DNA of 64,000 nt from Nitrospinaceae bacterium. Its GTDB lineage: Bacteria; Nitrospinota; Nitrospinia; Nitrospinales; Nitrospinaceae. Made by a program: the position numbers and the translations under genes. This document shows positions 3,506 to 5,254 of the stretch, in pieces; position 1 is the first letter of the stretch; each line of letters starts with the position of its first letter. The DNA is taken from assembly GCA_965223665.1 (NCBI GenBank), contig OZ245011.1:1184001-1248000 (forward strand), written 5' to 3'. A model generated the notes under the pieces. It was given only the letters and a program-made list of their open reading frames with translations, was not told where the DNA came from and made no database searches.

Positions 3506-3742
3506 TTAAGCAACCTGCTTGGCGAGAAGAACCCCAGTAGACCATCCACTTGAGGTCAATGGGCTCCTGGGGTCCTTCCCGCCATTTAGCAATTCCCGTT
3601 CGATCCGCTTGTTTTTTGCTCGTTTATAAACCTTTATAGAAGGCTTTACCTGCAACCGATATTGTCCATTGCTTAATGATTGAGCAACAGGATTTTCTTT
3701 TTGTAAAACCATTTTCTTTCCTTTTGACTTTTGTCGTTTCAT
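3506..3742 (-). CDS. Small basic protein, candidate ArfA-like alternative ribosome-rescue factor
   Basis: Strong SD (AAGGAG) before the ATG. 78 aa, Lys/Arg-rich, with a NPVAQSL..YRLQVK..KVYKRAKNK core and a hydrophobic tail TGVLLAKQVA; an RNA hairpin lies in its 3' coding region. Confidence 0.6.
   Translation of the reverse strand: MKRQKSKGKKMVLQKENPVAQSLSNGQYRLQVKPSIKVYKRAKNKRIERELLNGGKDPRSPLTSSGWSTGVLLAKQVA
3520..3584 (-). promoter_or_regulatory. Long intragenic mRNA hairpin (RNase III-type substrate candidate) in the ArfA-like gene
   Basis: UGGCGGGAAGGACCCCAG pairs with CUGGGGUUCUUCUCGCCA (18 bp, two G-U), extended by AG/CU and CCAU/AUGG. No U-tract follows. Confidence 0.7.
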
Positions 3743-3760
3743 AGACAGTCTCCTTTTCGA

Positions 3761-4627
3761 TTAAATCCAAAGGCAGTCAACAATGACTACTGACATTAAT
3801 AATACACTAATTATCCCATTAACATTAAAAAAGGCCAAATTTACCTTGGATAAATCCTTACTACTCACCAGCGAATGTTCGTACCATAATAATCCACCAA
3901 CAACCAAAACTCCTATTAAGTATCCCATTTCCAAACCAGGATGTACTAGCAAAATAAGTAAAAAAATAATCATTAACCCATGTGACATCAAAGCAATAGA
4001 TAAAGCGCGATCCACACCATAGCTTTGAGGTATGGAAAAAAGATTATTTTTTTTATCAGATTCATAATCCAAGCAAGAATATATGATATCAAAACCAATC
4101 AACCAAAAAACAACTGCCGTTCCCAATACTAAAGAAATAATTGAGATTTCTTCCCTAATAGCTACCCACGCTCCAACAGGGGCCACCGACAAGGCTAAGC
4201 CTAAAAAGAAATGGGAATACGGTGTAAAACGCTTGGTCAAAGAATAGAAAAAAACAATTGCAAGTGCCAACGGTGAAAGTAATAAAGCTAAGTGATTTAA
4301 CCTTCCACTCGCCCAAACAAATATCGCAGCAGATACCACTAAAAAAATTATATATTGCGGCGTTCCGGTTTTCCCTGCAGGCAACGCCCGACCTTCTGTC
4401 CGTGGATTTCTGGAATCTATCCGTGCATCGACAAGCCGATTGAAGGCCATTGCACTATTTCGTGCAAAAAACATACAAACTATGATCCATCCCAATTTAT
4501 CCCAATCTGGTAAACCTTCTGCTGCCAAAAAGGCACTCATTATCGCAAATGGCAAAGCAAATATTGTGTGCTGAATCTTAATATCCGCAAAAATGACTTT
4601 TAATTGTTTAAAAAATGAACGTACCAC
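3761..4627 (-). CDS. UbiA-family prenyltransferase (MqnP-like, futalosine menaquinone pathway)
   Basis: HTIFALPFA, AMAFNRLVDARIDSRNPRT and GFDIIYSCLD Asp-rich motifs; multiple TM helices; GTG start. Confidence 0.85.
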   Translation of the reverse strand: MVRSFFKQLKVIFADIKIQHTIFALPFAIMSAFLAAEGLPDWDKLGWIIVCMFFARNSAMAFNRLVDARIDSRNPRTEGRALPAGKTGTPQYIIFLVVSAAIFVWASGRLNHLALLLSPLALAIVFFYSLTKRFTPYSHFFLGLALSVAPVGAWVAIREEISIISLVLGTAVVFWLIGFDIIYSCLDYESDKKNNLFSIPQSYGVDRALSIALMSHGLMIIFLLILLVHPGLEMGYLIGVLVVGGLLWYEHSLVSSKDLSKVNLAFFNVNGIISVLLMSVVIVDCLWI

Positions 4628-4882: not shown

Positions 4883-5254
4883 ATGAAAAAGTTTATTCTA
4901 ATAATTGTAACAATATTTCTATTTCAAGGGATTGCACAAGCGGATGATGAAAATAACAAAGAAAAAAATATCAATCAGGTTAAAGATCAAATTTTAAAGC
5001 ACACAGATAAAAAGATTTCCATTCTCTCTAGCTTTAAATCTTGTGTAAGTTCTGCCAGTTCTAAGGATGATATAAAGTCTTGTCATCAAGAAAAAAAGAA
5101 TTCAATGAAAGCTGTAAAAAAAGAAAACAAAGAAAGGAGAAAAGAATTTCGAAAAGGCAAAAAAAGAGGAAAAGGAAGAAGGAATAAAGGTCGCAAAAAT
5201 AAAGATGACGATGATAACGAAAATGATGACGACGACGAAAAAAATGATGACTAA
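4883..5254 (+). CDS. Secreted hypothetical protein with a Cys pair and a basic-then-acidic tail
   Basis: SD AGGAGG; signal peptide ending AQA; followed by a terminator-like hairpin. Confidence 0.7.
   Translation: MKKFILIIVTIFLFQGIAQADDENNKEKNINQVKDQILKHTDKKISILSSFKSCVSSASSKDDIKSCHQEKKNSMKAVKKENKERRKEFRKGKKRGKGRRNKGRKNKDDDDNENDDDDEKNDD

Follow-up and report, generated by a model that had tools for sequence, protein, structure and literature searches.

The 64,000-nucleotide (nt) window analysed here comes from a Nitrospinaceae bacterium of the phylum Nitrospinota (GenBank assembly GCA_965223665.1, contig OZ245011.1, positions 1,184,001 to 1,248,000 of the forward strand), and the coordinates below count from its first letter. 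On its minus strand, between an mqnP-like gene and mqnE, lies a 78-codon open reading frame (ORF) for a small basic protein whose last codons are overlaid by a long hairpin in the messenger RNA (mRNA). The gene is probably a back-up that frees ribosomes stuck on broken messages, in the manner of the ribosome-rescue peptide ArfA. The locus is organized as follows.

3506..3742, minus strand: ORF of the ArfA-like small basic protein, 78 codons plus a TAA stop (3508-3506); conserved in 23 Nitrospinota loci
3750..3756, minus strand: Shine-Dalgarno sequence AAAGGAG with the ATG 7 nt downstream; read from the sequence
3593..3742, minus strand: conserved basic domain, codons 1-50; from the alignment and purifying selection
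3509..3592, minus strand: codons 51-78, a partly hydrophobic and poorly conserved tail spanning the hairpin; from codon differences and the varying stop position
3516..3591, minus strand: 76-nt hairpin, 31 base pairs (bp) in all; from folding and covariation across 18 homologues
3761..4627, minus strand: UbiA-family prenyltransferase (MqnP-like), the upstream neighbour; TIGR01475, 295.8 bits
2269..3369, minus strand: aminofutalosine synthase MqnE, the downstream neighbour; TIGR03700, 498.4 bits

The 78-residue protein is strongly basic, with 19 lysines and arginines against 4 aspartates and glutamates. Codons 1-50 carry the motif E-N-P-V-A-x2-L-x4-Y-R-x-Q-V-x2-S-x-K-x-Y-x-R, and the C-terminus reads ...TGVLLAKQVA. 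A word-index protein search returned the window protein itself and one 79%-identical relative, nothing else; clear homologues came from a six-frame search of 120 genomes of the phylum. Twenty-three loci were extracted (L002-L024, the window's own among them), most of which show a Shine-Dalgarno-like A/G-rich site and an ATG start. In their alignment about the first 50 residues are kept as K-E-N-P-V-A-x2-L-x4-Y-R-x2-V-x2-S-K-K-x-Y-x-R, with P18, A20, L23, S35, Y39 and R41 invariant, and beyond about residue 50 both sequence and length diverge. Seven pairwise comparisons, not independent of one another, gave 83 synonymous versus 57 non-synonymous codon differences in codons 1-48 and 15 versus 47 in the tail, the latter near the neutral ratio. 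This contrast between the two parts indicates selection at the protein level on the N-terminal part and none on the tail. The ORF is a real, conserved gene.

Profile matches at E ≤ 1e-3 occur in 49 of the 120 Nitrospinota genomes and in 31 of the 57 high-quality ones. By family, the matches are distributed over f1 (15/20), f2 (5/5), f3 (4/6) and f4 (24/70), with none in f5-f9 (0/18); genus g3 has no match to the profile in any of its four genomes, whose completeness is 96-99%. All f1 loci have the gene ahead of mqnE, an order kept in that family only, and in f2 and f3 it stands beside unrelated genes, with mqnE not adjacent and the hairpin still present. A functional link to the menaquinone genes was considered and rejected, since the synteny is limited to f1. 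Six f4 loci (L025-L030) hold a shorter variant with an ordinary stop 8-11 codons past the profile match and no such hairpin. One f2 genome contains two gene copies (G008, contigs 10 and 59). The copy at L006 (G044 contig 38; f4, genus g14) is almost identical to that at L004 (G026; f1, genus g4); the g14 relatives of L006 have the short hairpin-less form, and the L006 contig may be misbinned.

The window hairpin is built on a main stem of 18 bp, in which 3584-3567 pair with 3537-3520, two G-U pairs included, and which spans the third base of codon 53 to the first base of codon 75. Past 1×1 mismatches the stem adds 2 + 5 + 2 further pairs (apical part, 3565-3539), and an outer 4 bp (3591-3588 with 3519-3516) completes the total of 31. 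A 131-nt segment folds at −57.6 kcal/mol (z = −5.9), with 0 of 200 dinucleotide shuffles folding as well, and the hairpin is the most stable 90-nt window of the 3.2-kb locus (0 of 194 others as low). The sense strand reaches −48.6 kcal/mol versus −37.3 kcal/mol for the antisense. Directly 3' of the hairpin the sequence is AAGCAGGUUGCUUAAUUC, which holds no U-tract, and a terminator scan does not flag the hairpin; on these two grounds an intrinsic terminator was rejected for the window copy. A repeat element was likewise rejected, as the 91-nt hairpin stretch occurs a single time in the genome. The repeat search reported no inverted repeat at the hairpin because the G-U pairs break its exact 9-nt seeds, and the only Rfam matches were to eukaryotic microRNA-precursor models, below threshold and of a kind that any long hairpin produces.

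Across the 23 Nitrospinota loci, 18 carry a single hairpin of 27-37 bp (−33 to −54 kcal/mol) that starts 5-13 codons past the R of Y-x-R. The core stem begins 10-14 codons past this residue in 15 loci resolved by a narrower search and at +6 in L021; in L008 and L013 that search did not resolve it. Taken from 5 codons past the Y-x-R anchor, the 90-nt window is the most stable of its ~3-kb locus in 15/23, and other windows as low as this one number 2 in L019, 3 in L015, 4 in L022 and 16 in L017. Arm sequences differ between genera and pairing is kept. Among the 18 hairpins, paired cells amount to 91.1% versus 79.5% after shuffling (0/500 shuffles as high), 9 of 15 pairs changed on both sides (2/500 shuffles), and sliding the partners by 1-3 columns lowers pairing to 33-55%, figures that overstate independence because the test used a plain MAFFT alignment of 18 related sequences and a structure derived from the same. 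All 18 are more stable as sense than as antisense RNA, by 4.8-20 kcal/mol, with 3-7 G-U pairs against 0-2. In g1, g4 and most of g5 both arms are part of the reading frame, and the stop codon follows 4-62 nt past the hairpin; three loci (L008, L015 and L021) have their stop within the 3' arm, and two (L017 and L019) within the loop. U-runs follow the hairpins of L009, L015 and L016, and these hairpins could double as terminators placed at the stop or ahead of it. Alanine is the last residue in 8 of the 14 tails read through the hairpin. The hairpin is therefore described here as a conserved, covarying, mRNA-sense-specific feature of the gene, starting just after the conserved domain.

The original prediction, made from the letters of the window alone, had placed a 78-residue basic ORF with a strong Shine-Dalgarno site between the mqnP-like gene and mqnE, and had drawn an 18-bp stem over codons 53-75 (3520-3584), extending past mismatches, with no U-tract behind it. 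Every element of that description proved correct, and to the base; the full stem amounts to 31 bp, and both the sequence and the terminator scan bear out the missing U-tract. Its suggestion of selection on the mRNA, drawn from two G-U pairs present on the coding strand, agrees with the greater stability of the sense strand in 18/18 loci. The check it had named, collection of homologues with a covariation test, yielded an ORF conserved in 23 loci and a covarying hairpin in 18 of them.

The short basic peptide ArfA binds ribosomes that have come to a halt at the 3' end of a message with no stop codon. There it brings in release factor 2 (RF2), so that the nascent chain is freed. The relation of the window protein to it was approached through a wider family. 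An exhaustive profile search of 1.8 billion representative proteins gave 328 clusters at E ≤ 1e-3, with E down to 1e-7, so the family comprises at least 328 clusters. Its members are very small, basic and share the core R-N-P-[VI]-A-K-D-L-R-T-P-K-Y-R-x-R-V-V-x-S-K-K-x-Y-x-R-K. In an alignment of 150 sequences (the window protein and 149 of the best-listed matches), 37 match Pfam DUF7230 (PF23876) and one matches ArfA (E 0.008). The window protein itself has no match at all to DUF7230 (cut-off 27 bits); sub-threshold matches occur in 5/23 Nitrospinota members (best E 0.0018), and L005 of genus g5 scores 17.7 bits (E 0.0041), below that cut-off. Full-text literature searches found no paper mentioning DUF7230. 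The motif A[KR]DLRTPKY, scanned through species-representative genomes, marks 36 loci in Pelagibacteraceae, SAR86, other Alpha- and Gammaproteobacteria, Bacteriovoracaceae, Bacteroidota, one Ktedonobacterales and one Pseudanabaena, and tblastn adds relatives in T4-like Acinetobacter phages (ZZ1, Ac42, 133 and others) and in Roseobacter phage CRP-13, all annotated as hypothetical. Most of the wider family's ORFs are 'born short', that is, 35-50 residues with an ordinary stop about 27 residues past the aromatic residue and no consistent in-frame hairpin. DUF7230 and the wider family (basic proteins of 35-100 residues) thus have the core motif in common with the Nitrospinota proteins but, unlike the window gene, are mostly short and without the hairpin. 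Some members depart from this plan: in a Ktedonobacterales metagenome-assembled genome (MAG) the N-terminal motif is joined to a C-terminal part of 50 residues that holds two C-x2-C pairs and resembles a zinc ribbon (L054:1498-1722), and in L042 (Micavibrio) and L046 (an alphaproteobacterial MAG) a strongly acidic tail of 35 residues takes the place of the basic one.

Four Pelagibacteraceae (SAR11) proteins of 35-38 residues combine the family N-terminus with K-K-G-K-G-S-F and pass the Pfam ArfA cut-off (26.4-32.1 bits versus 25.5); other Pfam-positive ArfA genes, L073-L076, look similar. The SAR11 genes above the ArfA threshold (L056-L059, L072) have an ordinary stop and no in-frame hairpin, and represent a 'born short' ArfA. 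ArfA is not listed for Alphaproteobacteria in the available text of published surveys, and a full-text search of the literature returned nothing combining ArfA, non-stop and Pelagibacter.

For direct comparison, the Escherichia coli arfA sequence was fetched. With hhalign, ArfA residues 8-48 align with the conserved basic domain, and Y28 aligns with ArfA F25 in four independent runs, the register being the same throughout. These ArfA residues include the basic tail and the stretch described as binding the release factor, the role of F25 being taken from the available part of the ArfT preprint. An alignment of Pfam-positive ArfA sequences matched the wider family with 96.3% probability (E 2e-9) and the Nitrospinota proteins alone with 70.6% (E 3.9e-5); it is small (13 rows) because the ArfA search in a 300-genome sample of one proteobacterial class gave 4 matches. 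Enterobacterial ArfA matched the wider family with 81% (E 1.2e-5). The wider-family profile scores E. coli ArfA at 19.4 bits, versus a maximum of 8.0 in 300 composition-matched shuffles, and with the Nitrospinota-only profile the SAR11 proteins reach 14-27 bits, a score attained by 0/300 shuffles. These comparisons make homology to ArfA at the superfamily level, by way of intermediates, very probable. The window protein falls outside the curated ArfA family.

In layout, both proteins are small and basic and share N-x-[VI]-x3-L-x4-[YF]-R-x-[QR]-V followed by K-x-Y-x-R and a basic stretch, in ArfA (YhdL) of E. coli and other beta/gamma-proteobacteria as in Nitrospinota. They differ in that the window protein lies beyond the Pfam model, is without G-K-G, and has N-P-V-A instead of ArfA N-A-I-E. 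At the RNA level, the E. coli arfA control, put through the same analysis, has a stem from codon 51, 10 codons past R41 of S-Y-M-R, which is the most stable window of its 7-kb locus (0/336 as low), with the stop shortly past the core stem. Both genes thus carry a long imperfect hairpin within the ORF about 10 codons past Y-x-R, followed by a short hydrophobic tail and the stop. The equal offset is not claimed as proof of common descent of the hairpins; that of the Pfam-positive ArfA gene L074 lies much closer to the motif. According to the available text of PMC3989581, RNase III acts at the E. coli stem-loop, 'with some mismatches', and so leaves arfA mRNA stop-less; transcription, too, breaks off early at this point, and full-length ArfA is unstable owing to its hydrophobic C-terminus.

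Two other rescue peptides were set beside the window protein. BrfA (YqkK) of Bacillus subtilis is likewise, by the description available in PMC6881298, an RF2-dependent peptide from a message ending before its stop, and the corresponding section of the 2021 review gives it a distinct amino-acid composition and a probably unrelated evolution. ArfT of Francisella is also a short basic rescue peptide; as far as PMC6514570 describes it in its available text, it differs in a KKGGSTNKK tail, a motif absent here, in the lack of truncation control and in belonging to another widely distributed family, and the accessible part of the ArfT preprint reports that it can use either release factor. In what is available of the 2021 review and of a 2024 survey of more than 15,000 genomes, ArfA is restricted to beta/gamma-proteobacteria, to which the survey adds 10 species of the Bacillus subtilis group; the window gene, in Nitrospinota, differs in lying outside that range. 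A full-text search for ArfA together with Nitrospina, which does not extend to supplementary tables, returned only the 2024 survey and its preprint.

The prediction that the gene is a divergent ArfA relative is accordingly sustained by the profile comparisons and the SAR11 bridging proteins, and its placement outside the lineages where ArfA is characterised agrees with the review and the survey in their available text. Of the likeness drawn by eye, N-x3-L, the basic stretch, Y-x-R-basic and TGVLL versus TGLLL hold, and the reported absence of KGKGS narrows to a missing G-K-G. The HMM and structure searches it had named divided: Pfam ArfA and the solved structures gave nothing, and the profile-profile link and the bridging sequences came out in favour.

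The window genome (98.6% complete) encodes transfer-messenger RNA (tmRNA; 202 bits, tag ANDYEVAVAA), SmpB, RNase III (249.7 bits) and exactly two RF-1-domain genes, release factor 1 (RF1) and RF2; tmRNA, SmpB, RNase III and RF2 are found in the host genomes of the window gene and of E. coli ArfA alike. ArfB was not found, as there is no third RF-1-domain gene in the genome, and neither was RqcH, with no NFACT_N in the genome. Genomes of families f1-f4 have almost always two RF-1-domain matches and several f5-f7 genomes without the ArfA-like gene have three or four, a complementarity that involves very few independent lineages. The RF2 keeps the equivalents of E. coli V198 and F217, positions where RF1 has T and A, and this pocket is said to hold ArfA F25 in the available text of the ArfT preprint. 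RF2 is the likely partner. The RF2 gene itself, outside the window (L078 826-900, G000 contig 1), contains a classic programmed +1 frameshift site composed of AGGGGG, a spacer and CTT TGA.

We propose, with a probability of roughly 60%, that the gene encodes an ArfA-like rescue factor which depends on RF2, is translated from a truncated stop-less message and is kept under control by tmRNA. On the model of E. coli arfA, the hairpin would be cut by RNase III or, in some species, would stop transcription, and the message would therefore end before the stop codon. A product of ~55-60 residues would be made on this stop-less message, and the tail of codons 51-78 is predicted to be absent from the active product. 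tmRNA-SmpB would normally tag the product for degradation, so the factor would accumulate only when trans-translation is saturated or limiting. Where full-length protein is made, its hydrophobic tail would make it unstable.

Several observations weigh against this proposal. On the protein side, the window protein has no match to Pfam ArfA (PF03889, cut-off 25.5 bits) at E ≤ 10, a six-frame scan of the genome with the same model gave no match at the ORF, Pfam and NCBIfam scans assigned the protein to no family at all, and a profile search against solved structures returned 0 matches at E ≤ 10. The G-K-G of K-G-K-G-S is replaced by a 3-residue gap in all alignments, where K-x-Y-x-R remains. Low-diversity ArfA alignments reach only 7-9% against Nitrospinota alone, E. 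coli ArfA obtains only 4.2 bits from the Nitrospinota-only profile, a value reached by 7/300 shuffles, and short lysine/arginine-rich peptides are where profile methods are least reliable. On the RNA side, the hairpin is missing or weak in 5/23 loci, namely genus g2 (L018, L020, L023), L022 and L024, with an unremarkable stability of the hairpin-position window in g2 and L024, and it is absent from the six short f4 forms and most of the wider family; the protein can consequently do without the hairpin. Four loci (L015, L017, L019 and L021) have their stop within the hairpin and U-rich sequence behind it, and for both reasons an ordinary terminator is a possible reading of these four. Finally, the RF2 pocket residues are also kept in genus g3, which is without the gene, so the evidence from the pocket is only permissive.

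Some of these points would be met by an ArfA relative that is made with a normal stop, its hairpin being a stability or processing element or a terminator. Forms with an ordinary stop and no in-frame hairpin are indeed common (f4, g2, L022/L024, SAR11, SAR86 and others), and the four loci with the stop in the loop or 3' arm and U-rich sequence behind it fit such a design. We nonetheless consider it improbable, given that in g1, g4 and g5 the frame runs through both arms to a stop 4-62 nt later, that the tail evolves neutrally at the protein level, and that the window hairpin is followed by no U-tract; stems of 27-37 bp with 1×1 mismatches are, moreover, far longer than those of usual terminators and fit the RNase III site of E. 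coli arfA as the available text of PMC3989581 describes it. Another alternative takes the product for a small basic protein with some other role, such as a ribosome- or RNA-associated one, its ArfA likeness being compositional or convergent and the hairpin controlling expression of the downstream mqnE. The failure of the curated ArfA models, the weak direct signal between Nitrospinota and E. coli, and the position upstream of mqnE in all f1 loci speak for it. Yet the hairpin accompanies the gene in f2 and f3 without an adjacent mqnE, the profile scores are not reproduced by shuffles of equal composition, both halves occur together in the bridging proteins, and the hhalign register is constant, which together render this alternative unlikely.

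The protein could also be an ArfA-type rescue factor that uses RF1, both release factors, or no contact with the RF2 pocket. ArfT-type peptides can use either factor, by the preprint text cited above, and the window protein has G-K-G deleted and an N-terminus unlike that of ArfA; against this stand the alignment of its aromatic residue with ArfA F25 and the retention of the V198/F217 pocket residues in RF2, not RF1, and we regard such a partner choice as quite unlikely. A spurious ORF, with the hairpin as a non-coding element in the mqnP-mqnE interval, is scarcely credible: the word-index search did find only two proteins, neither named by any source, but 23 conserved loci with Shine-Dalgarno site and ATG, the excess of synonymous over non-synonymous differences in the N-terminal part and the 328 related clusters form a conservation pattern that already contradicts it. 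An ArfA-like, RF2-dependent factor made from a stop-less message under tmRNA control is the reading we prefer.

Two further observations concern the surroundings of the gene. A promoter-like site on the minus strand (3810-3838; TTGGCC, 17 nt, GATAAT, with an upstream TG) is embedded in the 3' end of the mqnP-like gene, ~70 nt ahead of the small ORF; promoter-like sites in the region number 6, against 8.0 expected from shuffled sequence, so there is no excess. On the plus strand, a 123-residue ORF (window 4883-5254) has a signal-like N-terminus and a C-terminal half very rich in lysine/arginine and aspartate.

New here is a Nitrospinota branch with a gated, hairpin-bearing design and without G-K-G. 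Taken jointly, the data might tentatively be read, at somewhat less than even odds, as placing canonical ArfA in a recognised corner of a larger release-factor-recruiting superfamily that extends over Nitrospinota, SAR11, SAR86, Bdellovibrionota, Bacteroidota and T4-like phages. In such a superfamily, 'born short' designs with a normal stop and 'gated' designs, in which an in-frame hairpin makes the message stop-less, would be interchangeable, the gated form would be the only tmRNA back-up in the Nitrospinota genomes carrying it, and K-G-K-G-S would be dispensable. Published surveys, in their available text, leave many phyla with tmRNA as the only known rescue route. If the proposal is true, the self-limiting principle of the stop-less message would extend to a distant phylum of marine nitrite oxidisers, and the family would offer a natural experiment on which ArfA residues matter, with G-K-G absent and the aromatic residue and basic tail kept. 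Hundreds of unannotated tiny bacterial and phage genes would then become candidate rescue factors.
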